Below, one piece after another: positions 1 to 32,622 of a stretch of 55,881 bases of DNA. The first letter of the stretch is position 1. Each line of letters begins with the position of its first letter. Position numbers and translations under genes: made by a program. The DNA is from an uncultured virus (IMG/VR IMGVR_UViG_3300030012_002808) (lineage: Duplodnaviria > Heunggongvirae > Uroviricota > Caudoviricetes), in the IMG/VR virus record IMGVR_UViG_3300030012_002808. One strand, 5' to 3'. The notes under the pieces are model-generated. The model had not been told where the DNA came from. It saw only the letters and a list, made by a program, of their open reading frames with translations, and ran no database searches.

Positions 1-500
1 TTATAATTCTTAATCATTAACTCAGCTGTTTTTCTTGATAACTGATCTGAATCAGGATCTTCTAAAATTTTTCTATACTTATTAATATCATATTGTTTAG
101 CAATCTTAGCAGGAGTTAAAGATTTTTTTTCATTCTTACCAAAACGTTTTAAAAGTTTTGGGTCTTTTACTTTCATTGATCTAGTATCACTATAGATAAA
201 AGTATCTTCTGGTAAGCTTAAAGGAACACCACCACCACTATGGCGTGGACCTTTTATTATTTTATGTTCTGGAATACCATCACCATTCAAATCACCAAGT
301 ACAGTTTCACCACCTTCAGCCTCAACATTAGCCTCATCTCTAGGTACACTAGTTATAAACTTACTTAAACTTAATGCAGGCTGTTGCATAGACTGAGTAC
401 TTCGCCCACCCATTGCAGCATTATCATTATACAAGCTATAATCTACTTGTTGTCCGACTTTAGCTTTAGGTAATCTTTTTATTCTTACTCTTCTTTTCAT
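1..500 (-). CDS. Putative virion cargo/internal protein, N-terminal part (runs off the window edge)
   Basis: Not in the ORF track. Translated by hand from ATG at 500: MKRRVRIKRLPKAKVGQ...ANVEAEGGETV...GPRHSGGGVPL..., open to the edge. Starts 1 nt after the upstream stop and has the same N-terminal motif as its neighbours. Confidence 0.8.
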   Translation of the reverse strand, partial: MKRRVRIKRLPKAKVGQQVDYSLYNDNAAMGGRSTQSMQQPALSLSKFITSVPRDEANVEAEGGETVLGDLNGDGIPEHKIIKGPRHSGGGVPLSLPEDTFIYSDTRSMKVKDPKLLKRFGKNEKKSLTPAKIAKQYDINKYRKILEDPDSDQLSRKTAELMIKNY

Positions 501-501
501 A

Positions 502-3500
502 CTATATAAAATCTAATTCTACCCCATTGGCAAGTAAATATTCTATTAATTCTTCTGGTAACTCATATTCACCATTTTCTTCAAACTGGTCCATGTAACC
601 ACCCTCTTGCATAAACCTACCGTACTTAGCTGTGTTCATACCAGTACTATCTTCTTGACCCATTTGATCAAAGTTCTGTAAACCAAGTTGCTTACCTCCA
701 ATATCAACCTTATCACCTTTATAAGTTTTAACTGTATTAGCATATAAGTTTTCTGGTCTAGTCATCTCATCATTATAATCAGCATAATCATTCTTTCTAT
801 TAGACCTAGACTTAAGTCCAGCAATACCTCGTATACCAGCTATAGACACATTAGCTAATGCTTCACCATCTGTTACTTTAGTTCTTCTTTTTAATTTGTT
901 TTCAAACATAACCTGTTTACCCTTCTTTTTATTTTTATCATTATACTGATAATTATAAAAATCATTTTGAATAGGATCTACAGCTTGATTAGGATCTACA
1001 GTAATATTATTAGGTTGTGGATCAGGCATGTCTGGTGTATTATTATTCATAAATGCTCCCATACTACCCATCATGCCTTGATTAGGATCTAGGTTAGTAA
1101 TTTCTGCATCAAGATTAACTTCCATATTAGGTTGAGGTGCATTGACACCCATGTTACTAGTAAAACCTCCACTTTGCATTTGAACTGCATCAGCTAAACC
1201 AGGATAACCAATTCTATCATAAAGACTTTCTAAACCATCTTTATATTTTTGCACTCCAATTTTAAGTCTAGTCTTCATATCTAAATCACGATTTGGAAAT
1301 AGTTGATCAGCAAGTCTTCTTCTAGAACCTATGTTAGAACTTTCTCTACTTTTACTTTTATCTTTAAAAGGACTACCTAATAAAAATGGGACATTACCTT
1401 CAGGATTTCTTTTAGCTCTTCTATCAGCTCTGTCTGACTGTCTCTCACCCCTTCTAATTTTTCTTCGCACACTTCCTTTTAAGTCACCATACTTATCTTT
1501 AAAACTTCTTTCTGGAATATCAAAGTTAATTAACTTTTGAGTAGCTTGATTTCTAGAATCTATTTGATTTTCTAGCTCACTAGAATCATCAGATCCAGTA
1601 GTATAATAATCAATATACTTTTTAGGCATACCCCTTCTATTAGTTTTAAGAACCTCTCTTCTCAATGGAGTAAGTTCATTCATAGGACCTGTATAATCAG
1701 TTTTAGTTTTTATATAAGGCATTCTACCAAACATCCTATTAGCTGGAAATAACATATCACGTAAAGCACCTCTTCTACCACTAAATGTACCATAAGGAAC
1801 CGTTTGTCTATTATAGTTTATAGTAGCTTTTCTAATAGGGTAACCTTCATAAGGATCAACAGCATTTTTTTCAGCCTGTCCAGCATTCATAAATGCTTTT
1901 GCTACCTTATATGCAGCACCACCTTTTTGTGCCATTGGTGTATCTTCCATTTCACCACCCTCTTGTTTTATTTTACCTAAAGAAAAATGTGGTACAACCC
2001 AATCATAATTAGTCTCAGGTGATTTTAAACCAAGTCCAAAATTAGAATTAAGCATGCCGTCTCTAGTAATAAAAGGTAAATCTTTTGGTACTTGATCTGC
2101 TGACATACTGCCTGGTTTATATTCTAATACTGGATAATCAAAATTCATATCTCTACCAGTTAGGTTTGACATATTTTCTAAATTAGTCATATAATAATCC
2201 CTTCTTAATTTAGAATAATCTCCAGCAATCTTAGCTTGTGCTTTAGCTTGTTCTGCAGGAGATAAACCTTGAAACTTTAAATCATAAATATCATCATACA
2301 TTTTTTTACCAAAGTATCCCTCAGTTAAAAAATCTTTACCTGAAAGTCTATTGTAACCAGTAAAAATGGGACTTTCAAATATACCATAACGTTCAGGGTT
2401 CTGTAACATTCTAGCAAAATGACCATCTTGCATTAATTTAGAATCAATAGTAAGATCATCTGATCCTGTACCAATAGACCCTATAGGTAAATTATCTATA
2501 TTACGCATTTGCTGTTTTGAAGCATATGCTAAAGCGGCAGGACTTTTATAGTTATAAGAAAACAATGAAGGTACAATATTAGCACTTGGTATACCTAAAG
2601 CTTCAAAACCACTTTTACCTTGAGAAGGCATACGAGTAGGATTTTTCATCAACATTTCAAATCTATTTACAGCTTGTTCAGGAGTAAGATTATATAGTTC
2701 TAGTTGACTCATCATATCATCAACATCGCCATCTAAGGTTTCAAAATGGTTGCTATCATCTAAAGACTTAACATTTTTTAAGCTAAGAGGATTATACATT
2801 TCATCTAAGAAAGCAGCCTGACTTCTTAATGGACCACGACCTTGTGCTATAGCTCTGAATATACCCTCCCTAGACATCATACCAGGATAAAGTACTTGAA
2901 GATCTTCATCTAATACATGGCTGGTTTTTGGAGAGTTTAGTTTTTTCTTTAATATATTATCATTTGCAGTTTCCATGAAGTTTTTATCTCTAATCAAACC
3001 TCTAATTTGCTGCAATCTTTTTAATTCATCTTTAGGAATTTTATTAAAACTTTTAACAGGTTGTAAATCTTTATAAACTTTTAAAGCATTTCTTATAATC
3101 TTACCTCTCTGAGCTTTAGGCATTTCAGAATTTTCTTCTTGAACTAAACCATCTGCCATTTCCATAACTTTAGGGTCACCTAATTTATTAGCGTTATTAT
3201 AAATCTCTTCACCCAATGCTTTTGTAGAAAGATTTTTTAAACTTTTTGTAAAATCAGACTTTCTTTTACTAATTTCATTTGTTAAAGTATCCTGTCTATT
3301 ACCAGTACCTATAGTTTCTGAATCACCACCTTCTTGTTTTTTAAGCAATGACTTGACAAATTTTCCTTTTGTCATACCACCATATGACATCATAGTTAAA
3401 TCATCCCAACTAATATTATCTGGACTAATATATTCAGATAATGTTGGAAATCTTATATCCATTATAGGACTTTGCATACCATCCATATACTGATCAAAGG

Positions 3501-4401
3501 ACATTTCTGGCTGCGGCTCTTCAGCTTGACCACCTTCTTGTAATCTATTGTTAAAATAAGTTCTATTACTGTACCTTCTTTTACCTCGACCTTTATTGCC
3601 AAACGCATTAGCAAAGAAGTTATTTACCGCACTATTACGAGCACGTTGTCTTTTCATGCGCGGAGCTCTTTGTGATTCTGTAGGTGTAGATTCTGTGGGT
3701 GTAGGTATAGATGCAGTTGGTTGTTCAGATATAGGAGGCGACAATGGTGGTGGTGAAATACTTGGACCACTAGTAGCGGGACCTATATTTGCACTTGCAC
3801 CACTTTGATAAGCACCTCTATTACTTAACATACTTTGTCTTAACTTCTGCTGTAACATCTCATTCTCATCACTAGATGGTTCAAAAGATAAATTAGGATC
3901 AAATTTAATTGAACCAACTCCACCACCTTGTTGCATAGATAACTCAGAAGTTTCATCTTGTGCCATCATTTCTTCTTGATCACCCTCAGAGTAACCATCT
4001 TCTTGATAAGGTTGTTCTGACTGAGTTAAGTCTGTCATTTCTTCTGGTATGCTAGCAGGCTGTGGAGCAGTTTGATCTTGACTTTGATCTGATACTTTCT
4101 TAGCCATCTTTTCAAAGTACTGTGGATCAAATAAACCAGCCTCAATCATTTTACTTATTACCTCTGACATCAAAGCACCTGCCATTTTTTTCTCCATACC
4201 TGATGTTAAAAGATTTGCATAAACTTCTTCAGGTTTTATATTTGCACGTAGCTGTGCAAATACATTTCTAGCATAAGTATCTCTTATAGCACGTTCTGTA
4301 ATACCGCCTCCCATTTGAAATTTAGACAAAAACTTTTTTGTCTTATTTATATAAGCACCTTTATTATCTGGCGACTTATAAATCTTTACTCTTTTTTTCA
4401 T
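502..4401 (-). CDS. 1299-aa modular putative virion cargo protein with about 10 QxGG-type motifs
   Basis: Long ORF downstream of the tail stabilisation gene. Motifs FQMGG, MQQGG, LQEGG, KQEGG x2, PKAQRG, AQKGG, MQSGG, MQEGG. Acidic C-terminal motif. Confidence 0.7.
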   Translation of the reverse strand: MKKRVKIYKSPDNKGAYINKTKKFLSKFQMGGGITERAIRDTYARNVFAQLRANIKPEEVYANLLTSGMEKKMAGALMSEVISKMIEAGLFDPQYFEKMAKKVSDQSQDQTAPQPASIPEEMTDLTQSEQPYQEDGYSEGDQEEMMAQDETSELSMQQGGGVGSIKFDPNLSFEPSSDENEMLQQKLRQSMLSNRGAYQSGASANIGPATSGPSISPPPLSPPISEQPTASIPTPTESTPTESQRAPRMKRQRARNSAVNNFFANAFGNKGRGKRRYSNRTYFNNRLQEGGQAEEPQPEMSFDQYMDGMQSPIMDIRFPTLSEYISPDNISWDDLTMMSYGGMTKGKFVKSLLKKQEGGDSETIGTGNRQDTLTNEISKRKSDFTKSLKNLSTKALGEEIYNNANKLGDPKVMEMADGLVQEENSEMPKAQRGKIIRNALKVYKDLQPVKSFNKIPKDELKRLQQIRGLIRDKNFMETANDNILKKKLNSPKTSHVLDEDLQVLYPGMMSREGIFRAIAQGRGPLRSQAAFLDEMYNPLSLKNVKSLDDSNHFETLDGDVDDMMSQLELYNLTPEQAVNRFEMLMKNPTRMPSQGKSGFEALGIPSANIVPSLFSYNYKSPAALAYASKQQMRNIDNLPIGSIGTGSDDLTIDSKLMQDGHFARMLQNPERYGIFESPIFTGYNRLSGKDFLTEGYFGKKMYDDIYDLKFQGLSPAEQAKAQAKIAGDYSKLRRDYYMTNLENMSNLTGRDMNFDYPVLEYKPGSMSADQVPKDLPFITRDGMLNSNFGLGLKSPETNYDWVVPHFSLGKIKQEGGEMEDTPMAQKGGAAYKVAKAFMNAGQAEKNAVDPYEGYPIRKATINYNRQTVPYGTFSGRRGALRDMLFPANRMFGRMPYIKTKTDYTGPMNELTPLRREVLKTNRRGMPKKYIDYYTTGSDDSSELENQIDSRNQATQKLINFDIPERSFKDKYGDLKGSVRRKIRRGERQSDRADRRAKRNPEGNVPFLLGSPFKDKSKSRESSNIGSRRRLADQLFPNRDLDMKTRLKIGVQKYKDGLESLYDRIGYPGLADAVQMQSGGFTSNMGVNAPQPNMEVNLDAEITNLDPNQGMMGSMGAFMNNNTPDMPDPQPNNITVDPNQAVDPIQNDFYNYQYNDKNKKKGKQVMFENKLKRRTKVTDGEALANVSIAGIRGIAGLKSRSNRKNDYADYNDEMTRPENLYANTVKTYKGDKVDIGGKQLGLQNFDQMGQEDSTGMNTAKYGRFMQEGGYMDQFEENGEYELPEELIEYLLANGVELDFI

Positions 4402-4417
4402 AGGTAATAATATATAT

Positions 4418-4430
4418 TAATATACTAAAA
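4418..4430 (-). promoter_or_regulatory. Putative late promoter (TTTTAGTATATTA)
   Basis: Copy of the recurring intergenic motif, about 17 nt upstream of the ATG at 4401. Confidence 0.6.
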
Positions 4431-4458
4431 TTTAAATTAATGTTTAAACTATAAAAGT

Positions 4459-7400
4459 TTACATATCCTCAACAATATACCCTTGTTTAACTAAGTTATC
4501 TATTTCTTTTTGAGTTAATTCTGTTTCTACAGAACCTCCCTTTTGAAACTCAGGTATACCACCATATTCAAGAATACCTTTCTTTCTTAAAAATTGTTTA
4601 AATCTACCATCCATTTTTTTTCTTTTGCCAAACAAACCTTGACCTTTTCTAATAGAATTATTATATCTTCTTTTACCTCCTAAACCTTGACCACTACCAG
4701 ACAAAGCTCCTTTAGAAAATTGAAGACCTCTTCTTATAGGTTTATACGGGATTCTAGATGGGTTTGGATTTATATCTGATGGCATTACACTTTCACCTTC
4801 TGTATCCCAGATCTCAGTTACTGTAAAGTCTTCAGGATCTATATCTTCTCTTGGCTCTGGTGTATAATCAAATGTTCCTGGTTCTATTATATCAAGAGGT
4901 TCTATTTCAATTTCTGGTTCAGGCTCTGGTTCTGGTTCTGGTTCTGGTTCAGGAATTACCTCTTCAGGTATTTCTTCTACTATAAGTTCTTCTTCTGGTT
5001 CTTCTATAAATTCATCAAAATCATCAAAGAAAAGATTGTGACAACCCCCTTCAGCCTTACACATATACTTTTTAGTTATATCCCATTTACCAGGAACAAC
5101 TGCAGGACTAAAGTTTCCTTGATAATAAGGGTTAGGTCTATACTTTACACACTCTACACCGTTCCAAACTTCACCTGGACCACAATCTTTAACATTACCA
5201 CCTTTACTTAATAATGGTCTCTTCTTACCTTCAGGGAATCTAAAATCTGTTTTCATTACACCAAAGTGAGGTATTATAATTGAATTCTCTCGCATCATAA
5301 AGTCATATGGATTAGTTATATATGATGAATGGGAATTCTGAGCATCCAATGTTTGAAAAACAGGTAACCTATCTCTTTCAGGAATACCTTGTTTATCATA
5401 CATGTCATTCAATTGTTTTTGAAGATATTGAGACCTAATATCTAATTGATCACTTCTTCTTATACCTAAAGAGTTATCCATTAATAAACTAGCTAAGTCA
5501 CCCATTGAGTTAGCTGGGTAATAACCTAAAAACATAGGGTAAGGAAGTACATTTGGTAATCTACCTGGTATTGTAGGATCTGTACCTTTAGTAGCTCTAA
5601 ATATTCTACCCAGCTGCATAGCATAAGAATCGTCAGATGTATCTAAAGAACCTGTGACAATAGTATTTGGCTTTGCACCATAAAAACCTCGATTAAGTCT
5701 TTCTTGAAAAAAATTAAATAATTCTCTATCAGTACCGTATCTATTTCTAAATAATGAAGGCACCGCTTGTTTTATTTGAAGATTTCTATGGAAATCTGTC
5801 ATATTATTAAATCTACTTAATGGTTGTTCACCAGGTAATAGAGTTAAAGAATCTAATACAGAACTAGGCGTCTGGTTTAAACTACCACCATCAAGAGTAC
5901 CTAATGTTTCCATCCGTCTTATAGCTTCATCACCACCAATAGTCCTCGCTGGTACATATTCAGGTTTTGTAAGATTTCTACTAGTAGTATGTTGTATTGC
6001 TTGATCCAAAATGTCTATAAGCTCTTCTTTAGATTTTTCTTGTATTAGCCTTTTTGCTTTATTTATTCTCTCTTGACTAGGTTCTAACCAACCCTCACTA
6101 TTAGGAACCAAGAGTCCTTTGTTAAAATGTGAGTTTGTTAATAAACCTGCTACCTCATCTTTAGTAATATTTGAGTTCATCAAAACCTTCCGTAATTTTT
6201 TACGGTTAGCATTCATTTGTATATCTTGAAATCTTTTTATTTCTGGATTTGTAAAAGTTCCTGATACATTAGTTGGTACACCAGTATAACCATAACCTAC
6301 CATCAGGTCAGTAAGAGCCTTATACTTATCAAAAGTTCTCTGATCCATCATAGGTGAAACAATAGTATTTGGTAATATTGTAGGAAGTTCTTCTTTAAAT
6401 TTAGATAATGTTTTTATAACCCTTCCTGCTTGACCTTTAGGTAATGTTTTTATTTTTCCATTATGAGTTCTTGCATATCTATTATTTTCATCTTCCATAC
6501 TAGGTATTAAAGTTCCTGAATATGATTTACCTTTAAAGTTCCAAGATACATTACCACCCTTTTGAAAATCTTCAGGCTGCTCTAATTCAGGTTGCATTCT
6601 ATAATTAGTAGTAAGCTCTTCTCCTGGTTCTAGATCTCTATTAGCAAAAACATATCTTTCATTTCCAATTTTTTTACTAAACATTGTTGGGGAATCTTCA
6701 TTATGATTATGCATCCTGCCTAATTTAGATGCGGGCTGATCATCTCTATGAGCTAAACCAATCATATCACCTTTTTTAAAACTTCTAGTAGTAAACATAC
6801 CATCACCAGCACCTTTTATTTTAGATTTAGATTGAGCTATCCCCCCATCTTTTACCATTGGTACTTCAAGTACTCTATCACCTGGAAACTCATAGTTCAT
6901 ATCTGGCATCATCATTGTGCTATTACCTAAATTATCTACACCCATAACTGGAAAATCAACATCTTCCATAGTTATATTATTTGAGTCAATGATATTAAAA
7001 GGATTATTTATATCAGGACTACCTGACTTATAACCTTCTGTAGAATAAATACCACCTTTTTTAAAATTTTTTATTGTCTGTTTAGCAGTATTCTTAAGAT
7101 CTTTTATATTTTTTTCAGCGTCATTATAAAGCTCTGCACCTTTAGTAAAAACCCCTTCCATAACTGGCATTGCTATATCATCAAACGATAATGGTAACAT
7201 AGCTGATTCTAATGCAACACCACCAAAAGCTGGATTATTAAAATTACCACTCATATAATTTTTAGCACCTTCATTTAAACCCGTAGCTGAGTTGACTGTA
7301 AACGGTTTAAATTTAAAATTTCTAAGAGCTTTTGGATTCAGTAATTTATCAGCAGATCTAACACCCTTTTTCAAACCATCTGCTAAAAACTTTTTACCAC

Positions 7401-8814
7401 CAAGTGCTCTACCAAAAGTTAAATTCATTGCAGGTGCTAAAAAATCTGATGCGCCAATATCTGCATCAGGTGTATTATAAGAATAGGTTGCAATATTACC
7501 CAAACCTTTAAGACCATCTGCAAACAATTGCGCAGCTCTAATTGGACCCAAGAAGGGTGTAATATAAGAAGCCCCATCCAAAGCTTGCATCATCAGATTA
7601 TCTTTCCAAATACCAGCGGCAGGATCTTCCTCTTGCATACGGTCAGTATTACCGTATTTATATAAATGACCAAGTGCATCAATAGGGTGTAAAAACTTAG
7701 TAAGCGTAGAAGCTTTTCTATAAGGATTTTTAATATTCCAAGATGCTTTATTTCTAGCTGACTCTTCATCACTTATACCTCTTATATGATGACCTCTATC
7801 AAACCACTGACCATCTGGACCCAGAGTCATGCCAGCATCCAGCATTTTTTTAGCCTCAATTAATTCTAAATCTGCATCATAACTACCTTCTACATCTTTA
7901 AGAATTGCAATCTTTTGAGCTTTAGAGAGACTACTATCATTAGCAATTTTTCTTTGAAAATCAATAAGTTTCATACCCCTATCTTTAAGATCACCACTTA
8001 AATTTTGTAAGTTAGCAGCTTCTTCTTCAAGATCTAATGTTCTTTCACGATAAGGGGCAAAAGTATCTGATGTAGCAACATTTCTCTCATAATCAGATAA
8101 ATTACTATCAAATTCAGACTGAGCTTCCTTAGCTCTTTTATCTTCTTCTTTAGCAGCATCTGTATAAATATTTGTAATATCATTAGTCAGACCAGAACCA
8201 GTATAATATTTAAGGATTTCATCTTGAGTTTCATCTGTGTAATCACCAAAATATTTTTCTAATGATTTAGCATCCTTACCCATTCCTTGTTTGAGTAATT
8301 TATCAATTATTTCTTCTTTAGTTTTACCTTCCTGTAATTCTTTAAGAATTGTTGTTTTATTTCCTAATTCATAATTAGCTTTATGTAGATCAAAAATATT
8401 TTGAAAAGATTTAGAAAGAAGATTCTTTTTACTAATACCCATATTCTCAAACTCTTTAGCTGTAGCACCTCTATTATAAATAGCATCTGCAATAGAATTT
8501 GGATCATATGCTTGGAAACCTGAAACCTGCTCACTACCGTCATCACCTTTAGTATAATTTGGAGAAAGAAAAACACCAAGCACAGGAAAGCCATCTTCAC
8601 CTGGACGGTTTATATATTCAGAAAAACCATCCATAGTTGGTTGTACATCAGAGTCTAAAGAACTTGAGTATTCATTATATAGGCGTTCTATAAATTTATT
8701 ATCTAAACCTATAGCATCAGTATAAATTTTACCCTCACCATCTTGATAAGGCTTGACCTCAAACCTACCTCCATTTTGCATTCTAGGTAATGCTGTTATT
8801 CTATACTTTTTCAT
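4459..8814 (-). CDS. 1451-aa modular putative cargo protein with SET domain, Tudor-like domain and (PE)7 linker
   Basis: SET motifs GAGDGMF, FKKGDMI, RMHNHN, LEPGEELTTNY. Modules bounded by MQNGG, FKKGG, VKDGG, FQKGG, PKGQAG, LSKGG, EYGG/FQKGG. Confidence 0.75.
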   Translation of the reverse strand: MKKYRITALPRMQNGGRFEVKPYQDGEGKIYTDAIGLDNKFIERLYNEYSSSLDSDVQPTMDGFSEYINRPGEDGFPVLGVFLSPNYTKGDDGSEQVSGFQAYDPNSIADAIYNRGATAKEFENMGISKKNLLSKSFQNIFDLHKANYELGNKTTILKELQEGKTKEEIIDKLLKQGMGKDAKSLEKYFGDYTDETQDEILKYYTGSGLTNDITNIYTDAAKEEDKRAKEAQSEFDSNLSDYERNVATSDTFAPYRERTLDLEEEAANLQNLSGDLKDRGMKLIDFQRKIANDSSLSKAQKIAILKDVEGSYDADLELIEAKKMLDAGMTLGPDGQWFDRGHHIRGISDEESARNKASWNIKNPYRKASTLTKFLHPIDALGHLYKYGNTDRMQEEDPAAGIWKDNLMMQALDGASYITPFLGPIRAAQLFADGLKGLGNIATYSYNTPDADIGASDFLAPAMNLTFGRALGGKKFLADGLKKGVRSADKLLNPKALRNFKFKPFTVNSATGLNEGAKNYMSGNFNNPAFGGVALESAMLPLSFDDIAMPVMEGVFTKGAELYNDAEKNIKDLKNTAKQTIKNFKKGGIYSTEGYKSGSPDINNPFNIIDSNNITMEDVDFPVMGVDNLGNSTMMMPDMNYEFPGDRVLEVPMVKDGGIAQSKSKIKGAGDGMFTTRSFKKGDMIGLAHRDDQPASKLGRMHNHNEDSPTMFSKKIGNERYVFANRDLEPGEELTTNYRMQPELEQPEDFQKGGNVSWNFKGKSYSGTLIPSMEDENNRYARTHNGKIKTLPKGQAGRVIKTLSKFKEELPTILPNTIVSPMMDQRTFDKYKALTDLMVGYGYTGVPTNVSGTFTNPEIKRFQDIQMNANRKKLRKVLMNSNITKDEVAGLLTNSHFNKGLLVPNSEGWLEPSQERINKAKRLIQEKSKEELIDILDQAIQHTTSRNLTKPEYVPARTIGGDEAIRRMETLGTLDGGSLNQTPSSVLDSLTLLPGEQPLSRFNNMTDFHRNLQIKQAVPSLFRNRYGTDRELFNFFQERLNRGFYGAKPNTIVTGSLDTSDDSYAMQLGRIFRATKGTDPTIPGRLPNVLPYPMFLGYYPANSMGDLASLLMDNSLGIRRSDQLDIRSQYLQKQLNDMYDKQGIPERDRLPVFQTLDAQNSHSSYITNPYDFMMRENSIIIPHFGVMKTDFRFPEGKKRPLLSKGGNVKDCGPGEVWNGVECVKYRPNPYYQGNFSPAVVPGKWDITKKYMCKAEGGCHNLFFDDFDEFIEEPEEELIVEEIPEEVIPEPEPEPEPEPEPEIEIEPLDIIEPGTFDYTPEPREDIDPEDFTVTEIWDTEGESVMPSDINPNPSRIPYKPIRRGLQFSKGALSGSGQGLGGKRRYNNSIRKGQGLFGKRKKMDGRFKQFLRKKGILEYGGIPEFQKGGSVETELTQKEIDNLVKQGYIVEDM
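4912..4953 (-). repeat. Hexanucleotide repeat encoding (Pro-Glu)7
   Basis: TTCTGG-type tandem units on the + strand; protein reads IPEPEPEPEPEPEPEI. Confidence 0.9.
6553..6840 (-). other. SET domain (protein-lysine methyltransferase fold) within the 1451-aa ORF
   Basis: Four canonical SET motifs in order: GxG, (I/F)KKG(E/D)xI, RxxNH, GEELTx(D/N)Y with the catalytic Tyr. Confidence 0.85.
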
Positions 8815-11800
8815 ATTTCCTCTATTGTATAACCTTGTTTTCTTAATTCTTCTACCATATCTTCTGTAACCTCATCTCCTAATTCTAATGCGCCACCTCT
8901 TTGTAATTTAGGTTTATCATTATCATCCATCAAACCAGGTAATGCAAATGGTATTGCTAAACCAGGTAAATATCTAAGAGCTTGATATTTTTTTTCTCTT
9001 GGTACTCCTTTTTTAAAGAATGAATTTAAAGGAGTTGATGTACCTGGCATTTCAAGCATGCTATCTAAAGTTGAATTTGATGGGTTACGCAATTCACCAA
9101 GAGCCCACTCACTTATTTTCTTATCTCTTTCAGGTATACTTAAAGTTCTACCTGTATTAGGATCTACTTTAAAAGCTTCTTTTACAGATGGATTATTTAC
9201 CCACTCATCATATATTCGTTTTCTAACAACCATTAACTCTGAATGTAATTCATTAGGAGATCCAACCCAATCTTTATCAGGCATTATTTCTTTAAAGAAC
9301 CTACCTATATTAGTATCTTCATTTGGATAAAAGTATCCTTTACTAGAATCAAATTTTGCTAACACATCACCAAACCCTCTACTTTCCATACCTAATCTTT
9401 GAGCAGTATGAGCAGCTTCATGTAAAGCTATATCAGTTATTTCACTACTTGGATATCTATATAAACCTATACCTGGATTTGTAACTGATAAATTTAAGCT
9501 TGATTGATTAACACCAGCTGAATCATTTTCTAAATAGTTTTTAAGTAAAAACCTTTTTTCTGGATCAGTAAATTTACTTGATAAAATATTTGTAATACCT
9601 TCTGGACGTAATATATTACGTGTTTTAACCAAAGGATTTTGTAAATTTAAACCATACTTGTTGTTGCTATATACAAGGGTATTATCTAAAGTAAGTCCAT
9701 CACCTAAACCTAAACGACCCAATCCTTTAAATTGATTCCCGTCACCATCTACCTCACCTCTAAATTCTTGAGCAAAATATTTATCTTGTCTATTCTGAGG
9801 TCCAGAGAACTCATATATATCTAATATTTTATCTGATATATCTTTTCTTAATATTTTACCAAATTTAGGATCTACTTCATAAAGCCATTTATCATTAAAA
9901 TCAACACCTTCTTGTACTGCTAAAGATGCTTCTAAATCTGCAGCTTTTTTTTGGGAAGGTGTTAAAGGTAAAACCTCACCAAAACTTCTTCCTTCTTGTG
10001 TAATATCTTTAATAGCACGTTTAAGACCTTTCTTGGTGTTATTTATCTTATTACTAATAATCCTGCTTGTTAACTTTTGTATACTAGGCTGCACCTCTTG
10101 TACAAGCTTTGCATTTTTTGAGATTTTGTTAATAGCCTTAGATAAAGACGTACCTTTTTGAGCTTTAGGCAACCCTCCATCTTTTAGTTTTTTCCTTTTA
10201 TTTCTTTCATCTTCAAATGCAAAAGGTAACCCTAAAGTTAAAGGCAGTAAAGATTTATATATATTAGAATTAGACATATCAAACATTCCATCATTTCCTA
10301 TTGCTGATTTAACTCTATTACCAGGTCTATTATTTATCATAGTTACATTACCATATATTTCCTGTGGTTGCCAACCTGAATCCAAAATATTATTTAACTT
10401 AACATTATCAACATCATTTTTTATCATATAGTCCATGATGTCATCGGTCTTTATTATACCTGCTCCTTCATCCACTTCTCTCCTTCTAAAGAACCCGTCT
10501 AATTTTACCGTTTTTGGAAACTGAGAAATTAAACCTTTTGCAACCTCATTAAGTTCTTTAGGTACGGAGATAGGTTGATTTGGAGTAGGATCACCATCAA
10601 GTTTTAATGAGTTCCAATCTGATTTATTTGTATCAAAATCTGCAGAGTTTGATGATATTGGATAGTAAAGTTCATGTAAATCACCTGTCCTTCCAGTCCA
10701 CATATGTTTAGTATATCGTTCTGCTATCTCTCTATCTGTAGATGTAAAAAGTGGTTGATGAAGATCTTCAAGATTTTTAAATGTAGAACCTCTATATGTA
10801 TAACCAGCCCCTTGAGGAAATGCTTTTTTAAAGTTCTTACTCTGCTGTTGTACAAATTGCTCAGGAGTACCTTTAAATAGACTACCATCTGCATTTTTCA
10901 TCCAAGTATCATTTTGTTTTGTATTATATTCAATAGCACGATACTCTTCAATTAATGGTTTATTATTAGGTATGTTCTTGTTCCACTTACCCCAATCTAT
11001 TTGTGATTTAAAATTTTTAACAGGTAGTTTTTTTGCAGCTTTAGCTAATGCAGCACCAAGTTGAGCTTTAGGTAAATCTTCTACTATGTAACCACCGTCT
11101 ACATACTTTTGTATTTCTTCATCATCTAATTCAAGTTCTACACCTTCATCTGATAACTGATCTTTCCAAGAACCTTCACCAAATGCTAATGCAGCTTCCT
11201 TGTCTTTTCCAAAGTTATATACCTCACCTCTTCTTTCAGCCTCATCTAAAATTTTATACCAATTTTCTTCTTGAGACATGTCAACCCACGCACCATCATC
11301 ATCTTGAAATAAAGAAGGAAAAGCTACCCAAGAACCATCTTCAAGTTGTTCAGCTCTCATTAAATGAGTTGATTCAGAACCATCAGGGTTTTTTCTAACT
11401 CCTTTTCTTTGTTTTACTTCTATTGGACCACCCCTTTGTCTAATTAAATCTAAGTTAGGTTCTGCTGCTTTCCACCATTTTTCTCCAAATGGTATACTAA
11501 AAGGTAAGTCAGTAAAATGCTCTCTTGCACCCAGAGTCCTATTAACACCATCAAAATTTAAAACCTTTCTTGCACCACGTTCATTATCAGGATTAAACAC
11601 AGAACCTAATTTATCCATTCCACCTGTTAGCCAATTATTATCTGGTAAATAAGGTTGAAGTTTATTTGGATCTATAAATTGAGCACCAAATCCATGTTGA
11701 AGCAAATTACTTATATTCTCTTGAGTAGTTTTATTTTGATGTAAACCAACCTGTAAAGGGTTTGTATAATCAAAAAGTTTAAAAGGAACATCTGAAACAC

Positions 11801-26576: not shown

Positions 26577-28055
26577 TTACGGTGTTTCTTCTTCAGCTGG
26601 TGGAATTTCTTCAGCTGGTGCAATAGGGGCAGCTGCTGCTACCACAACAACACTTGGGTCATCACATGCAACAATAGCTTCCTGAGTATAATCAATACAA
26701 TCTTCATTACCAGCAGCAATCAATGTATTTGTAATATCATCTAGTAATGCAGCAATATCAGCATTTAAAACAGCTCCACCAGTTGGTGCAGCAATATCTA
26801 ATAGATACTGATCGTTATCAAATGTACCTGAAGGATTATTGAATCTTGGAATAGTATGTAAGATAAATGCTCTATCATATAATGCAGTTCTATCAACTTG
26901 TCCAGGACCAGTTCCTAACATGTCATTACCTTGAGTAATCTCACGAATTCTTAAATCAGTTGCAAAAGGAATTTGTCTGTAAGATTCTGATAAGATAAAA
27001 TCTCTCAATACACTTTCACCAAGTCCTTGTGGTTTTTTACCTTCACACTCATTTACAATACAAATTCCAGTAAACTCACATGGATCACCATTTAAGTCAA
27101 CTTCAGAAGCAAATAATCTTAGAGGCTCAGTTCCGTAGAAATCTGATGGTTGGAAAGTACAATCTCCAAATCTAGTTTCTTCATAAGCACCTACTAACGT
27201 TAGTCCAGCACACTCATCAGTGTAAGCAGCAGGAGTATAAACATCAGCAGTAGTTGCAAGAACCGTATCTGGACCAGCTAAACCTAAAAAGGTATTAGTT
27301 GCAGCAACACCAGAAGTAAGTACAGCAGGAGCAGTTCCAGCAGGATATACTAAAGTTGTTCCATTTCCTACAGCACCGCCAGCACCAGCAGCAGTTACAG
27401 TAACTACAGGAATAACAAATGGTTCTGCATTAGTACGTCCATTAGGTCCAGAACCTGTAAGAATAACACTCTCTTGAATTCCTCTTTGCCATTCAAGCAT
27501 TACAATAGCTGGGTTAACAGCTACAGGAGCAATTGAGTCATCTTCACAACATCCTGTATAAGCAGTAACTTCTTGATATGCTTGACGATTTAGCATTCTC
27601 AATGCAGGGGATCCTTTTACATCTACTCTTAAGTGATAGTTTTCACCACATAAGAAAGTTGGACAGCAGTTTGGATCTCCAGCAGTAAATGGTGTAGTAC
27701 CAATATGTAAAATAGACTGTTGAGCAGGATTTGCTCTTTGAGTCCATATTTTACTGATATACTTAGGATTAATTCCTTTTGATTTAATTGATTCTTGGTA
27801 ACCACCGTGGAAAGGTCCAATTCTGTCACTTCCATAAGGAGCACCAGATGCAACAACAAATTGACATGTAGTTGCTTCATCACCAGCACCAGCTGCACCA
27901 ACATTAAGTGGTGTCCACTGTCTTGCATCATACAAAGATAATTGTCCTGAAGTTAGTTCACCACTAGCAGCAGTAGTAGCTGGAGGTGCTGCTACAGGAG
28001 CAATATACTCAGACATAATAAATGTCTTTCTAAAAGCGTTGTTAAAATAAGCCAT
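26577..28055 (-). CDS. Probably abundant structural protein (auxiliary capsid-like), Ala/Gly/Pro-rich
   Basis: Has its own promoter motif and terminator; function inferred from position only. Confidence 0.45.
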   Translation of the reverse strand: MAYFNNAFRKTFIMSEYIAPVAAPPATTAASGELTSGQLSLYDARQWTPLNVGAAGAGDEATTCQFVVASGAPYGSDRIGPFHGGYQESIKSKGINPKYISKIWTQRANPAQQSILHIGTTPFTAGDPNCCPTFLCGENYHLRVDVKGSPALRMLNRQAYQEVTAYTGCCEDDSIAPVAVNPAIVMLEWQRGIQESVILTGSGPNGRTNAEPFVIPVVTVTAAGAGGAVGNGTTLVYPAGTAPAVLTSGVAATNTFLGLAGPDTVLATTADVYTPAAYTDECAGLTLVGAYEETRFGDCTFQPSDFYGTEPLRLFASEVDLNGDPCEFTGICIVNECEGKKPQGLGESVLRDFILSESYRQIPFATDLRIREITQGNDMLGTGPGQVDRTALYDRAFILHTIPRFNNPSGTFDNDQYLLDIAAPTGGAVLNADIAALLDDITNTLIAAGNEDCIDYTQEAIVACDDPSVVVVAAAAPIAPAEEIPPAEEETP

Positions 28056-28108: not shown

Positions 28109-28133
28109 GTTTTTTAATTAATCAAACCTAAGA

Positions 28134-28832
28134 TTAATTATTTCTTTCAGCCTCTTGCTGACCTCTAGAATACTGATTTCCAGATTCTATATCTCCAGCT
28201 ATTATACTTACAGCTTCGTCAATAATTAATTCTACAATGTCATCTTTAAACTCAGAAGTAACATCTGTAGTAGATTCAACTTCAGTATATGGATTTATAC
28301 AACCTTTAACTTGAATTAATCTAGGCTGTCTATAGTAAGTAAGTTCTGATTTAGATATTTCAAAGTCTGCGTTAGTATAAATGTTTATACCATCATCAGT
28401 TAAAGTAGCAAATGTTTCCGCCCAAGAAAAACTAGGTTGTTTAGATTTATCTCTCAAAAGCTGATTAAGATTTTCTTCTTCTGCTAAATAGACAGTCATT
28501 CTTCTATTTTCACAACAACCTTTACATGCGTTAACATCAAGCCTTTTCCACTGTAAATAATCTTTAGGTACAGGACCTCTATAATAAATATCTTCTTCTT
28601 GAAGTAAAATTGGATCCTGAACTAATATAACCTGAAGATCATCTTTTCTTCTGGTAGATTGCTCATCACCTTCTCTTAATGTATTAATACCATGCAGCTG
28701 TCTTCTACACCACTCTACTTGAGCTTTGTTAAAAGCCTCAACTATTTGCCAGCACAAAACATTATCATAATCTTGACTATCAAGTTTATTGAGCCTTTCT
28801 TTAATTTTTATTGTAAGTGTGCTATTTAACAT
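28134..28832 (-). CDS. Putative head-tail ring/adaptor protein
   Basis: LNKLDS...FNKAQ and YYRQP...ELIIDEAV patterns resemble crAss-like ring proteins. Confidence 0.55.
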   Translation of the reverse strand: MLNSTLTIKIKERLNKLDSQDYDNVLCWQIVEAFNKAQVEWCRRQLHGINTLREGDEQSTRRKDDLQVILVQDPILLQEEDIYYRGPVPKDYLQWKRLDVNACKGCCENRRMTVYLAEEENLNQLLRDKSKQPSFSWAETFATLTDDGINIYTNADFEISKSELTYYRQPRLIQVKGCINPYTEVESTTDVTSEFKDDIVELIIDEAVSIIAGDIESGNQYSRGQQEAERNN

Positions 28833-29002
28833 TACTTCTTTTTCTTTCTTTTAGCGGCAATCTTTTTAAAAGTCTTAGCAAGTGTTTTAGCTTTACCTGT
28901 ACAAGTCTTCTTTGTAATAGGTGTGCATTTACCTTTAGTACCTCTCTTCTTAATAGAAGCACTAACTTTTTGCATCCACTTTTTATCTTTCTTTTTTGCC
29001 AT
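28832..29002 (-). CDS. 56-aa Lys-rich basic protein
   Basis: Below the track cutoff. MAKKKDKKWMQKVSASIKKRGTKGKCTPITKKTCTGKAKTLAKTFKKIAAKRKKKK; TAATG overlap with the next gene. Confidence 0.8.
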   Translation of the reverse strand: MAKKKDKKWMQKVSASIKKRGTKGKCTPITKKTCTGKAKTLAKTFKKIAAKRKKKK

Positions 29003-29004
29003 CT

Positions 29005-29070
29005 TTAATAATCCCAGTAGATAAAGATTTGATCATTCTCTTCTTCTGGATCTTTAAAAGTTTTGCTCAT
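29005..29070 (-). CDS. Possible 21-aa acidic peptide
   Basis: MSKTFKDPEEENDQIFIYWDY; follows a promoter-like motif and ends 2 nt before the next ATG. Confidence 0.4.
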   Translation of the reverse strand: MSKTFKDPEEENDQIFIYWDY

Positions 29071-29087
29071 ATATCAATATACAAAAA

Positions 29088-29375
29088 TTAACAATTCCAT
29101 TTACGTAGAGATTTGTTAATTCTTGAATTAGGATCATTTCTTTTTTTAGATCCTGTCATTTTCTTTTTCATACCTGACATTCTAGCACAAAAACTTTTTC
29201 TTCTCTTAGCAGCTTTACTATTTTTTTTAAGTTTAGAAGGTTTTGTTGTAACAGCAGTTTTAAGTTTACTTCCAGGGTTAGCCTTTCTGTAAGAAGCAAC
29301 ACCTTTTTTATTTAAGCCACCTGACTTACTTTTACCTTCCTTCCTAGTCCAAGCTGGAGTTTTTTTAGTTGCCAT
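29088..29375 (-). CDS. Small basic phage protein (RRKSFCARM type)
   Basis: K/R-rich; KEGK..GGLN, RRKSFCARM, SLRKWNC, recalled as a widespread aquatic phage family. Confidence 0.75.
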   Translation of the reverse strand: MATKKTPAWTRKEGKSKSGGLNKKGVASYRKANPGSKLKTAVTTKPSKLKKNSKAAKRRKSFCARMSGMKKKMTGSKKRNDPNSRINKSLRKWNC

Positions 29376-29391
29376 AATTTAAAACATTCTT

Positions 29392-29838
29392 TTAAAATGG
29401 TAATTTTTTACTTTTAAGTTTATTTTTAATTCTTTTTAGTTTAGCTTTAACTTTACCCTTACCGCCAATATTCAAGCCGTCACCACTACGTTTTGGACCA
29501 GACATACATTTACCCTTAACTACCTTACCACCTCTACAACCACCACCTCTAACTGCAGCACCTCCTAGTTGCATATACTGACCACCTAATTTTTGTTCTT
29601 TAATGTCATTAAAATACCCTAGTACTGCTGCGGGGTTTGTCATATTACCACCCATTTGCATTTTAGGTTTAGTGTGACCATAACCCTTCTTTTTCATACG
29701 GGTATGATCAGCCATAACTTTTGCTTTATAACCCTTTCCTGTTTTAGGATCATACATCATATGAGGTTTAAACTTCTTCTTAGCAGCACTCTTTTTAGCA
29801 CCACCTTTACTATATAAACTTTTTGGCATTGTATTCAT
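29392..29838 (-). CDS. Basic Gly/Lys-rich protein with QxGG motifs
   Basis: SKGG, MQMGG, MQLGG; KFKPHMMYDPKTGKG module. Confidence 0.75.
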   Translation of the reverse strand: MNTMPKSLYSKGGAKKSAAKKKFKPHMMYDPKTGKGYKAKVMADHTRMKKKGYGHTKPKMQMGGNMTNPAAVLGYFNDIKEQKLGGQYMQLGGAAVRGGGCRGGKVVKGKCMSGPKRSGDGLNIGGKGKVKAKLKRIKNKLKSKKLPF

Positions 29839-30107
29839 TATTTTCTTTTTTTAGTTGTTTTTCTTTTTCTAACTGAACTAGTTCTATTACCCATACCAAC
29901 TCTTTTCTTTTCAGCAACAACAGAAGCTTTTCTAGAACCTAAACCACCCCATGTCACTGGAGTTTTTTTAGAAACTTTTTTGCTAGGTCTACATTTTTTG
30001 ACGGCTTTATTCTTAGAAGATCCACATGGATTACCTTTTTCATCAGTCCACTTTTCTTTGAACCAACGTTTTAATGCTGCACCTTTAGCTGTCTTTCTAA
30101 CCGCCAT
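29838..30107 (-). CDS. Small basic protein (RWFKEKW type)
   Basis: LKRWFKEKW...CG...CRP motif; tight gene packing. Confidence 0.75.
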   Translation of the reverse strand: MAVRKTAKGAALKRWFKEKWTDEKGNPCGSSKNKAVKKCRPSKKVSKKTPVTWGGLGSRKASVVAEKKRVGMGNRTSSVRKRKTTKKRK

Positions 30108-30118
30108 TACTTTTTCTT

Positions 30119-30316
30119 TTAACTCTTGCCAGCTTTTCTTTTTCTACACTTAGCAATCATACCGCTAGCATAAGCAGATGGGAATACCTTATGAGCTCTT
30201 TTAGCTGCATAGTAACAAGAGTCTTTTTTACTCTTAGTTTTTTTCTTTTTAGATCCTCCTTTTCTAAAGAATTCTAAAATTTCACCGTCCGTATTTATTC
30301 TATTATAATTAGGCAT
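30119..30316 (-). CDS. Small basic protein (PSAYASG type)
   Basis: FRKGG followed by KKDSCY...PSAYASG...KCRK. Confidence 0.75.
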   Translation of the reverse strand: MPNYNRINTDGEILEFFRKGGSKKKKTKSKKDSCYYAAKRAHKVFPSAYASGMIAKCRKRKAGKS

Positions 30317-30318
30317 AA

Positions 30319-30507
30319 CTATAAGTTTCTTCTTAATGAGGCACCTCTGATAACTTTACCTTTGCCACATGAGCCACCATACTTTAATTGCTGTCCTTGA
30401 ATAGTTCTTGGATTATTACTATATCTAGCCATAGTCTTACCTGGGTAAGGATTTTGACCTCCATTTTTCATTTTGTGGGCACCGCCACATTTCATACATT
30501 TTGGCAT
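30319..30507 (-). CDS. Small basic protein with xGG motifs and GxxLRR C-terminus
   Basis: MKNGG, LKYGG, IRGASLRRNL. Confidence 0.7.
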   Translation of the reverse strand: MPKCMKCGGAHKMKNGGQNPYPGKTMARYSNNPRTIQGQQLKYGGSCGKGKVIRGASLRRNL

Positions 30508-30517
30508 ATCTTATATT

Positions 30518-30820
30518 TTATTTATTTTTTATACTTCTTCTTAGTGATCCACCTTTAATTAATTTTGGTTTAGATTTATTACTTGATTTAGGAGATCGTG
30601 ATACTTCATATAATACTGCACCATAAGGATCTGTCTCTAAAATCTTATATTGTACATCTGTGATACCTCTTTTTTTAAGAGCACGTCTTCTTGCATTATA
30701 AGCACTTCTACTAGGCGCCACTCTTTTACCCAAAACAGGTGAATAATCTTTACTTTTTTTAGCTGCTTTCTGAACTCCTTTAGCTATACCACCTTTCTGA
30801 TATTTTGTAAGGTGTTTCAT
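30518..30820 (-). CDS. Small basic protein with YQKGG and GxxLRR C-terminus
   Basis: KYQKGG...IKGGSLRRSIKNK. Confidence 0.75.
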   Translation of the reverse strand: MKHLTKYQKGGIAKGVQKAAKKSKDYSPVLGKRVAPSRSAYNARRRALKKRGITDVQYKILETDPYGAVLYEVSRSPKSSNKSKPKLIKGGSLRRSIKNK

Positions 30821-30822
30821 AA

Positions 30823-31203
30823 TTAATGCTTTTTACTTCGTCTTAATGACCCACCTTTCATCATCTTCATACCACCATACTGAGCATAGCCCATTTTATT
30901 ACGAACATCTGTTGGTAATGATCTTAGACCATTAAACTTTTTACCAGCTGGAACACTTTTCAAAGAACCGCCTGATTTAAATTTAGGTTTTTGAAGTTCA
31001 GGATACTTCATGCGATTCATATTGTCACCTTTTTTTACGTCTACCCCAAACATTCCAGGCTTATATGTATTCAGTGATTTACGTTTAAGTTTTGAAGAAG
31101 CAGGTGTTTTTCCAGCTCTTTTTACCTTTGCAAGTTTTCCAGTTGTTTTTTTAGCAGCCTTTGCAGCAAGTTTTGCAATACCACCTTTTTGATACTTTTT
31201 CAT
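30823..31203 (-). CDS. Small basic protein with YQKGG and GxxLRR C-terminus
   Basis: KKYQKGG, FKSGG, AQYGG, MKGGSLRRSKKH. Confidence 0.75.
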   Translation of the reverse strand: MKKYQKGGIAKLAAKAAKKTTGKLAKVKRAGKTPASSKLKRKSLNTYKPGMFGVDVKKGDNMNRMKYPELQKPKFKSGGSLKSVPAGKKFNGLRSLPTDVRNKMGYAQYGGMKMMKGGSLRRSKKH

Positions 31204-31205
31204 AA

Positions 31206-31574
31206 TTAATGTTTTCTAGATCTTCTTAAATTTTTACCTCTGATAACCCCACCTGATCTATATAACTTCATAGTAGGATTATTTTCTAACGCAGCTTTAA
31301 ACATATCAAGAGCATCTTGATTAGTAATATTAGGATTCTTTAAAAAACTCTTTACTTTCTTAGCATCACCAGAACTAATTACACCACGTTTTTGCATAGC
31401 CTGCCTCAAACCTTCTTTAGCATATTGGTCTGTATCATACCTTTTTCCTTTCCTACCTATAGTTGTAGTTCTCTCAGGTAATTTAGGTTTAGGTACTTTA
31501 ACTTTCTTTTTTGCAGCTTTAGCAGCACTACTTATAATCTTACCCCTTTGTGCTTTTGGTAAATACTTTTTCAT
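31206..31574 (-). CDS. Small basic protein (start revised to MKKYLPKAQRG)
   Basis: ATG at 31574 lies 1 nt after the upstream stop. LPKAQRG, YRSGG, IRGKNLRRSRKH. Confidence 0.75.
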   Translation of the reverse strand: MKKYLPKAQRGKIISSAAKAAKKKVKVPKPKLPERTTTIGRKGKRYDTDQYAKEGLRQAMQKRGVISSGDAKKVKSFLKNPNITNQDALDMFKAALENNPTMKLYRSGGVIRGKNLRRSRKH

Positions 31575-31575
31575 C

Positions 31576-32622
31576 TTAACCTTTTTTTCTACTTCTGCTA
31601 ATTTTTCTAACAATTTTTTTAGCACTCATAGGTCTTCCACCACCTTGGTTTTTCTTAGAAACACCTTTTCTAGTTACTCTCTGAGTTAATCCAGATGGAG
31701 AAGTTATAGTTCTACCTCTTTGAGCCTTTGTAAGTTGAGTTCCAGATCTTTTAGAAGGAAGATTTTTTCCACCTGGTATAGGTCTTGTAACTTTAGCTTT
31801 ACCTTTCCCAGTAGCTTTTTTTCCTGCTGCTTTTGTTGCTCTTTTAAGATCTTTTTTAGTTCTAGGCATTCCAGGAGGCATCATACTTGTACTTGATTTT
31901 TCCTTTTTAAGTGACTTTCTTAATACTTTTTTCATTCCTGGTGTAAGTTTTCCAATAGCACCGCCTTTTTGCATTTTAGGTCCTTTACCTTTTTTGCCCC
32001 TTTCTACATCTTTAGTTAGCATATACGATTTTCTTATTTTGTTGAGAAAATCAGAGTCTGGCTTTATTCCTCCTTTAATACTAATCGGTCTCTTCTTATT
32101 TTTTTTCTGAAGGCTCTTAGTAAGACTTGTGCCACCCTTTTGCATTTTAGTTGTCTTAGCATATTTTCTTACAGCTTTTTTAGCACTAACAGGTCTTCCC
32201 GCACCTTGATTCTTTTTAGCTACGCCTTTTCTATTTACTTTAGTTTTTAGTCCAGACTTAGAAGTTACAGTTCCACCTTTTTGCATTCCAAGGGTAGCAA
32301 GTTTTGTAGATGATTTTCTAAGAGGAGATACCTTACCACTAGCTTTAGCTCTACTTTTACCTGAAGCTATTTGTAAAGCTTCATTAAGTTTTGATCTCAT
32401 ATTAGCTCCAGTTGATCTTAAACCACCTCTAGTTAAGCTTTTTTTAGCAGCAGCAGTGCTTTCCATCTTTCTCCTAATTGGAGCCTTAGAAGTAGATTTT
32501 CTACCTGGAGTACCTTTACCTTTTCCAGCAGCTTTTACAAGCCTTGTCATTTTTGCTAATCCTTTTTGGCCTTTTGGTAATCTTTTTTTTGCACCACCAT
32601 AACCATACTTTTTCATTGCCAT
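31576..32622 (-). CDS. 348-aa extremely basic protein (histone H1/protamine-like composition) with six xQxG(G)-type motifs
   Basis: Very few acidic residues. YGYGG, PKGQKG, MQKGG x3, KAQRG; one internally duplicated module. Confidence 0.75.
   Translation of the reverse strand: MAMKKYGYGGAKKRLPKGQKGLAKMTRLVKAAGKGKGTPGRKSTSKAPIRRKMESTAAAKKSLTRGGLRSTGANMRSKLNEALQIASGKSRAKASGKVSPLRKSSTKLATLGMQKGGTVTSKSGLKTKVNRKGVAKKNQGAGRPVSAKKAVRKYAKTTKMQKGGTSLTKSLQKKNKKRPISIKGGIKPDSDFLNKIRKSYMLTKDVERGKKGKGPKMQKGGAIGKLTPGMKKVLRKSLKKEKSSTSMMPPGMPRTKKDLKRATKAAGKKATGKGKAKVTRPIPGGKNLPSKRSGTQLTKAQRGRTITSPSGLTQRVTRKGVSKKNQGGGRPMSAKKIVRKISRSRKKG

Follow-up and report, generated by a model that had tools for sequence, protein, structure and literature searches.

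The 55,881-nucleotide stretch of viral DNA analyzed here (IMG/VR record IMGVR_UViG_3300030012_002808; hereafter the window) was identified by profile matches as a crAss-like phage structural block. Our analyses support the conclusion that one shared peptide, with the fuller consensus L-P-K-Φ-Q-x-G-G (Φ, hydrophobic; hereafter the junction), marks the module borders of its large cargo proteins and of its small basic proteins, and that the modules so bounded are swappable. Crassvirus cargo and polyvalent proteins are known; what is new is the shared junction code, its reach into the small basic proteins and a cargo-borne zincin-like module, and we found no paper that reports the motif from phages. 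Phages of the crass type count among the most abundant ones in the gut and the environment, and one peptide at every module border provides a direct handle on the loading and ejection of their megadaltons of protein cargo.

The junction peptide and its distribution

The cargo proteins are encoded by three open reading frames (ORFs) taken from the ORF list, which, like nearly all ORFs in the window, lie on the minus strand: ORF A (8811-12944, 1377 aa), ORF B (4459-8814, 1451 aa) and ORF C (502-4401, 1299 aa). ORF A is the first gene past the muzzle gene (12944-18346; Pfam crAss_MUZ), and the three ORFs sit directly downstream of that gene, at the position held by gp45 and gp46 in phage crAss001, where the order is gp44 (muzzle), gp45, gp46. 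Judged from synteny alone, the products of ORFs A, B and C are presumably virion proteins. The basic proteins come from a block of 10 tandem ORFs (28832-32622, minus strand; 56-348 aa, 21-43% Lys+Arg) placed between capsid-associated and tail genes.

In its strict form, [FYML]QxGG, the motif occurs at 17 sites in the window ORFs. Ten are in the cargo ORFs (five in C, three in B and two in A) and seven in the basic ORFs (two in 29392-29838, one each in 30518-30820 and 30823-31203, and three in 31576-32622). The other 34 ORFs (11,555 aa, including the capsid, portal, terminase, ring and muzzle proteins) contain none, as had been stated for capsid, portal, terminase and tail genes in an earlier, sequence-only reading of this DNA. 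That the motif is a chance effect of composition might be argued from the richness of these proteins in Gly (8.5% and 11.2%) and Lys, but this explanation, which we consider virtually untenable, is refuted by 2000 composition-preserving shuffles of each protein. The cargo ORFs have 10 strict sites against a shuffle mean of 0.25 and a maximum of 3, and the basic ORFs reach seven (shuffle mean 0.07, maximum 2); in both groups, none of the 2000 shuffles was as high, bearing out the enrichment over a Gly/Lys-matched background that the earlier reading implied. For the other 34 ORFs the shuffle mean is 0.38. Plain Gly-Gly is barely enriched in the cargo ORFs (40 occurrences vs. 30.6 expected, with 81 of 2000 shuffles as high).

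When all Q-x-G sites are considered, there are 42 across the 13 cargo and basic ORFs, which matches the "about 40-45" occurrences first estimated. Aligned on the Gln at position 0, these sites have Leu at -4 in 12, Pro at -3 in 12, Lys at -2 in 16 and Met, Ala, Leu, Phe or Tyr at -1 in 31; position +1 can be any residue, +2 is Gly, and +3 is Gly in 24. The [FYML]QxGG form and the PKAQxG variants are thus one signal, described by the fuller consensus. Many junctions are followed by a basic amphipathic stretch, as the sequence-only reading had quoted.

Along ORF A, the junctions are FQGGG (12762-12776), RQRGG (11427-11441), PKAQLG (11055-11072), LKDGG (10173-10187), PKAQKG (10152-10169) and LQRGG (8892-8906), all on the minus strand, as are those that follow. 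The first of these ends an N-terminal leader of 61 aa (12762-12944), and the last precedes an acidic C-terminal tail of 26 aa (8814-8891). ORF B contains MQNGG (8767-8781), FKKGG (7051-7065), VKDGG (6841-6855), FQKGG (6553-6567), PKGQAG (6424-6441) and a further FQKGG (4534-4548), after which comes an acidic tail of 24 aa (4462-4533). ORF C contains FQMGG (4306-4320), MQQGG (3922-3936), LQEGG (3529-3543), KQEGG (3325-3339 and 1954-1968), PKAQRG (3103-3120), AQKGG (1918-1932), MQSGG (1165-1179) and MQEGG (598-612), the last being followed by an acidic tail of 31 aa (505-597). The three tails are of one type, with a junction 24-31 aa before each end, and an internal copy of this acidic, tail-like mini-module stands directly before PKAQLG in ORF A (11073-11135). 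Four large motif-bearing genes had been counted previously. Three of them hold; ORF 3-500, the opening 166 aa of a 1102-aa gene, has a PBECR3 match below the cut-off and no strict motif, either in its window part or in the full-length copy in G001, the nearest record, a ~96% identical relative of 83,391 bases (estimated 70% complete) with proteins 90-98% identical to those of the window in seven pairwise alignments.

The SET-domain module of ORF B (aa 659-754; 6553-6840, minus strand) is a secure assignment (Pfam SET, E 1.4e-08, 35.6 bits vs. a cut-off of 22.4) and lies between VKDGG and FQKGG, the borders originally proposed for it. A second ART-like domain had been described between PKAQLG and LKDGG. 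These borders stand, enclosing ORF A aa 631-924 (10173-11054, minus strand), and its nature as a possible ADP-ribosyltransferase (ART) is a lead from a language model only (Atlas; ART-PolyVal makes up 32% of one cluster, score 0.90). This segment had no Pfam match and a PDB sequence search with it returned nothing below E 0.08. Pfam searches of 15 junction-bounded segments matched SET only.

In the basic block, the junctions are PKGQKG (32560-32577), MQKGG (32272-32286, 32131-32145 and 31960-31974), PKAQRG (31542-31559), YQKGG (31180-31194 and 30788-30802), FKSGG (30967-30981), AQYGG (30871-30885), MQMGG (29647-29661) and MQLGG (29560-29574), again on the minus strand. No junction was found in ORFs 28832-29002, 29088-29375 (DUF6321) and 29838-30107 (DUF5872). 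The 348-aa basic protein harbors five or six copies, and in eight ORFs the junction lies 4 to 58 residues from the ORF's own start. The longest form of ORF 31206-31625 (minus strand) has a GTG start and runs into the end of 31576-32622; the likelier start is an ATG at 31574, from which a 122-aa protein would begin M-K-K-Y-L-P-K-A-Q-R-G, as its neighbors do. Four consecutive small basic ORFs (30319-31574, minus strand) share a second tail, [GK][GAK][SN]LRR[SN], in the forms GASLRRNL, GGSLRRSIKNK, GGSLRRSKKH and GKNLRRSRKH, which may be akin to the short C-terminal loading peptides of encapsulin cargo. In G001, an extra basic ORF of 177 aa (G001:C1:59275-59808), with LQQGG at residue 38, sits between the copies of window ORFs 28832-29002 and 29088-29375; it is absent from the window, so the basic protein set differs not only in modules but also in entire genes.

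Junctions as borders of exchangeable modules

Comparison of the window proteins with their G001 counterparts revealed five indels of at least 50 aa (74, 196, 94, 57 and 61 aa). Each of the five is flanked by a junction no more than 8 aa from an end (in three cases at both ends), which holds for none of the 12 smaller indels (1-18 aa). A rough estimate based on how densely junctions occur puts the chance of such an indel-junction match well below 1 in 100. ORF B and its G001 copy are 96.0% identical with zero indels.

The C-terminal part of ORF A has ten homologues (28-100% identity, 927-1968 aa), eight of which (P0001-P0003 and P0005-P0009) share a 57-aa leader with the motif at residue 58, and the acidic tail is near-identical in nine of the ten, at overall identities of 28-100%. 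Between leader and tail these proteins vary in the number and order of their modules, all of which are bordered by junctions. When 1.84 billion representatives were queried with the HExxH core of the zincin-like module of ORF A (see next section), 74 proteins of 94-2107 aa were recovered, in which the position of the module is variable. In an alignment of 22 of these proteins (26-100% identity), the column directly after this module is Gly-Gly in 14 sequences, the end of the protein in six and a single Gly in two. Modules added in relatives include lysozyme, SLT, amidase_2 and a peptidoglycan-binding domain, which fits the expectation for ejection proteins.

Modules also pass between free and fused states at the junction. 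DUF6321 (29088-29375) and DUF5872 (29838-30107) are free-standing basic ORFs in the window, and five of 53 scanned relatives carry them as fusions at the end of zincin-bearing proteins. In the P0051 fusion the sequence reads YKNGG-KTPAW, compared with M-A-T-K-K-T-P-A-W at the start of the free gene. The nearest cultured relative by portal, Leptolyngbya phage Lbo-JY46 (32% identity), has after its muzzle-sized gene a 674-aa protein with FQTGG at residue 195 and FQQGG at residue 643, 31 aa before its end, followed by a similar acidic tail, and its next protein (484 aa) opens with LPKAQIG. A 495-aa protein of this phage has LQAGG at residue 80. The junction peptide is thus kept at 26-32% identity, including in a cultured phage, and the conservation of borders across homologues that the sequence-only reading had asked for is seen down to 26% identity while the modules shuffle. 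A scan of viral contigs with ORF B as the query returned G001 as the sole match.

These patterns could in principle also arise if the junction were a passive linker or recombination scar, left by illegitimate recombination at a short shared sequence, with a peptide that binds nothing. Large indels do end at junctions, module order does vary among relatives, and the joints are predicted to be flexible. However, the DNA at 21 junction sites shares only short runs (median 6 nt of 24, maximum 13 nt), the codon for x is variable whereas conservation at the protein level covers five to eight residues, and the peptide persists at 26-32% identity. Moreover, free-standing genes have it right at their beginning, where a linker would have no role. 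We consider the passive explanation improbable; because the shared DNA runs are so short, selection appears to act on the peptide rather than on the DNA. Long DNA repeats at the sites, as a driver of module shuffling, were rejected given the same median of 6 nt.

A zincin-like module and the fate of the junctions

The last module of ORF A before its tail (aa 932-1351; 8892-10151, minus strand), between PKAQKG and LQRGG, contains HEAAH at aa 1175. The pattern HExxH[TS]xQ is kept in all ten ORF A homologues, residues H76, E77, H80 and Q83 together with E133 and H135 of a downstream ELH (alignment numbering) are invariant in all 22 aligned sequences, and HE..H..Q is present in 63 of 72 new representatives. 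An AlphaFold2 (AF2) model of the core has a pLDDT of 85.2. The AF2 model of the whole 420-aa module is poor (pLDDT 55.3), and a structure search with it matched only the N-terminal helical hairpin; junction residues have low confidence in both models. Foldseek with the core model gave no matches at E <= 0.001, and a VIA structure search was weak: lethal factor and PPEP-2 gave the best Z, 4.7 over 131 residues, and the zincins that recur low in its results are lethal factor, PPEP-2/3, ArdC, PprI, SPRTN, FtsH and PepO. At the sequence level, the window module had no Pfam match; SprT-like reached 22.4 and 25.5 bits (cut-off 25.6) in two relatives only, and the FtsH active-site helix matched at E 0.1. 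Collectively, these data suggest a zincin-like candidate protease, which could be a processing enzyme of the sort proposed for polyvalent proteins by Iyer et al. 2017 or, just as well, an effector. Another HExxH module of a different type (DHEN[MF]HA.Q) lies between the last two junctions before the C-terminal tail in P0005, P0008 and P0009; one of the three gave its sole Pfam signal, Tox-MPTase4 (E 0.013).

The sequence-only reading had seen no obvious protease in the window, which is too strong a statement given this HExxH module, although no known protease family matched among the window ORFs scanned. Its suggestion that a protease be sought in the rest of the genome was taken up in G001, with Lbo-JY46 and crAss001 as further records. 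Six-frame searches for the clan CE families PF00770 (C5) and PF02902 (C48) gave no match in any of the three records, nor were the prohead proteases PF04586 and PF03420 (S78, S77) found in them. By single-sequence search, the zincin module was detected in G001 and not in Lbo-JY46 or crAss001, though a profile search might reach further; both of the latter also have Gly-Gly joints.

Cargo protein C1 of crAss001 (gp45; Bayfield et al. 2023, PMC10172136, PDB 7QOG) resembles ORF A both in the position of its gene, directly after the muzzle gene, and in being likewise a chain of short pieces parted by Φ-x-x-G-G peptides. Its pieces resolved by cryo-electron microscopy (cryo-EM), residues 214-245 and 425-552, each lie between consecutive Gly-Gly peptides, and residues 425-552 are in density at the portal wing (PMC10172136). 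The gp45 junction NAFGG occupies residues 424-428, such that A-F-G-G falls inside this density. In one relative (P0013), a window-type zincin module and a gp45-type CARG1 domain are joined via FALGG, which appears to tie the zincin-module family to cargo protein C1; CARG1 (PF25725), the portal-bound domain of gp45, itself had no match in ORFs A, B and C at E <= 0.01. In addition, 16 of 82 relatives (P0014, P0015, P0018 and 13 others) end in NYNKPxxGGWLxKYN, where GGWLxKY resembles gp45 427-433, and these ends suggest that a junction plus tail can be a docking element. Unlike gp45, the window system has a junction with a fixed Gln and an L-P-K prefix, enzyme modules in its cargo (SET, zincin-like and, as a lead only, ART) and the same junction in small basic proteins. 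Position and one bridging relative would thus be what links the window Q-junction to the crAss001 joint. Neither the motif nor a protease nor cleavage comes up in the crAss001 structure paper ("cleav" and "protease" occur zero times; PMC10172136).

Our preferred reading, held tentatively, is that the junction is an uncut joint or docking handle. ORFs A, B and C and most basic genes would then encode strings of independently folding cassettes, each opening with a (L-P-K)-Φ-Q-x-G-G junction that stays whole in the particle, where it would provide a flexible Gly-Gly joint and a conserved face recognized by one common virion partner. The integrity of the joints is suggested by homology of position with crAss001 gp45; the partner is putative. 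Junctions, conserved N-terminal leaders and C-terminal tails may together hold the cargo in place and in order at the portal, the tail or the inside of the capsid, and the junctions may let the chain thread out module by module. Because each cassette would bring its own junction, cassettes could be gained, lost, fused or split harmlessly, and we propose that effector sets differ between near-identical phages because of this free exchange. Consistent with an uncut joint, the gp45 AFGG is within density and contiguous with what follows, C48, C5, S78 and S77 were not found in the three records searched, and the zincin module was not found in two of three records with Gly-Gly joints. The RNA-polymerase cargo proteins of crAss001 were detected in the virion, with only a moderate discrepancy between predicted and observed sizes reported by the authors; excised gel bands include ~150, ~270 and >300 kDa, compared with predicted sizes of 154.5, 262.5 and 276.9 kDa. 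If bands and proteins correspond as these values suggest, this cargo appears near full length; it is of the kind that is without the motif in G001.

Several observations weigh against joints that stay whole. Junctions 4 to 58 residues from the start of eight ORFs have little there to join, others fall 24-31 aa before the end of each cargo ORF, and five or six copies in the 348-aa basic protein go beyond the needs of a handle. DUF6321 and DUF5872 lack a junction when free and stand behind one when fused, so the junction is not needed to load them. This also weakens a simple loading tag, one half of the earlier proposal of a protease site or loading tag for swappable modules, of which the shared border peptide and the swappable modules hold. 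The pattern looks like that of polyprotein cleavage sites, and the cargo includes a conserved zincin. Since neither the Gln nor the L-P-K part is present in the crAss001 joint, it may not be the same signal as the window junction. Finally, crAss001 has 12 gp45 helices in the tail and 12 gp45 domains on the portal in the head, 420 Å apart, and in the published model 12 gp45 chains would run through the portal tunnel (PMC10172136), which, we infer, cutting would avoid.

The contending explanation, possible in our view but ranked behind the uncut joint, is that junctions are protease sites, with cleavage following Gly-Gly or Q-x-G. The zincin module of the cargo, or another phage or host protease, would do the cutting, either during maturation in the head, as in adenovirus cores and T4 and phiKZ heads, or after injection, and cutting would release effector modules and small DNA-coating peptides. 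Such sites would account for a common peptide at every joint, after short leaders and before short tails, for free and fused module forms that break exactly at the junction, and for natural stop codons at the junction column in six of 22 sequences. They would also fit a peptide that is under selection at 26-32% identity, Lbo-JY46 included, without repeated site DNA, as well as the multiple copies in one basic protein, the free DUF6321 and DUF5872 genes that do without the peptide, and the HExxH...ExH that is invariant in 22 of 22 sequences. On the other side, what supports cutting is pattern and analogy, one homologous joint is intact in crAss001 gp45, four protease families were found in none of three records, and the zincin module, whose fold match is weak (Z at most 4.7), was not found in Lbo-JY46 or crAss001. 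In addition, AF2 leaves the module's own C-terminal junction, a stretch with pLDDT below 50, outside the HExxH cleft.

Precedents for cutting come from several viruses. Gly-Gly sites with an upstream hydrophobic residue are cut by adenain in adenovirus (core proteins and protein VI), by pS273R of African swine fever virus (ASFV) and by Ulp1 in SUMO, and Q-x-G-G resembles such SUMO-, adenain- and ASFV-type sites. Adenovirus likewise has basic DNA-bound core proteins and an internal membrane-active protein with an amphipathic helix right after the site. By analogy with adenovirus core maturation, basic proteins and effector polyproteins might be loaded in the head and cut at (LPK)ΦQxGG into module-sized pieces, a version we likewise regard as possible and place after the uncut joint. 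However, in contrast to adenain, pS273R and Ulp1 sites, the hydrophobic residue of the window junction is one position further from Gly-Gly, and no clan CE protease (C5, C48) was found in the three records. T4 internal proteins carry an N-terminal capsid-targeting sequence, and phiKZ and SPN3US process their head proteins; these phages share with the window short leaders on basic injected head proteins and one site common to many head proteins, but their sites are cut after Glu, unlike the window junction, and S77 and S78 were not found in the three records.

The polyvalent proteins of Iyer et al. 2017 (PMC5512222) are, in the portions of that account considered here, likewise large, multidomain, mosaic and delivered with DNA, and bring together zincin-like peptidases and conflict enzymes (ART, peptidoglycan hydrolases, nucleases), as the window cargo may too, ART being a lead there. 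The same portions put the zincin-like peptidases forward as the enzymes that process polyvalent proteins and give phage P1 DdrB as an example of cutting ahead of packaging, both of which favor protease sites, whereas N4 virion RNA polymerase, ArdC and TraC1 have such peptidase domains and yet travel uncut (PMC5512222). They define domains and no junction peptide ("crAss" and "SET domain" occur zero times in them). What is new with respect to these proteins is a peptide common to all borders that also extends to small basic proteins.

On either explanation, the junction predicts where to look for neo-termini or virion contacts, junction-bounded modules explain effector-set differences between near-identical phages, and the peptide would permit thousands of unannotated giant phage proteins to be divided into modules automatically. 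Cut junctions would belong to a maturation system not reported in crassviruses within the literature searched; junctions that stay whole would represent a new kind of repeated docking or threading signal. Were the adenovirus-like version true, the junction would be a portable "cut here" code by which any effector cassette could be plugged into the injected arsenal, with the cargo-borne zincin or another protease cutting either inside the head or once the host is reached.

The surrounding structural block

The remaining genes of the block include the large terminase (TerL; 39541-41754) and portal (36785-39535), both assigned by PHROG, and the crass-type major capsid protein (33750-35363), ring protein 2 (19376-20047) and ring protein 1 (18348-19376), assigned by Pfam. 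Beyond the left end of the window, the motif-bearing cargo genes are followed in G001 (G001:C1:579-30764) by five giant ORFs of 1980, 3249, 2445, 1259 and 1102 aa. These five ORFs (1102 to 3249 aa) contain zero strict motifs, and their only matches are LysM in the 1980-aa ORF and sub-threshold hits to PD-(D/E)XK and PBECR3; they are probably the virion RNA-polymerase block.

Profile matches also identified a PD-(D/E)XK exonuclease (42264-43148), an amidase_3 endolysin (44506-45204), a metallophosphoesterase (46354-47247) and a GroES-like protein (51696-52145), all on the minus strand. ORF 26577-28055 (minus strand), which has no Pfam or PHROG match, encodes a 492-aa protein rich in Ala, Pro, Thr and Gly, and its stretch is the GC peak of the window (0.37 vs. 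~0.32).

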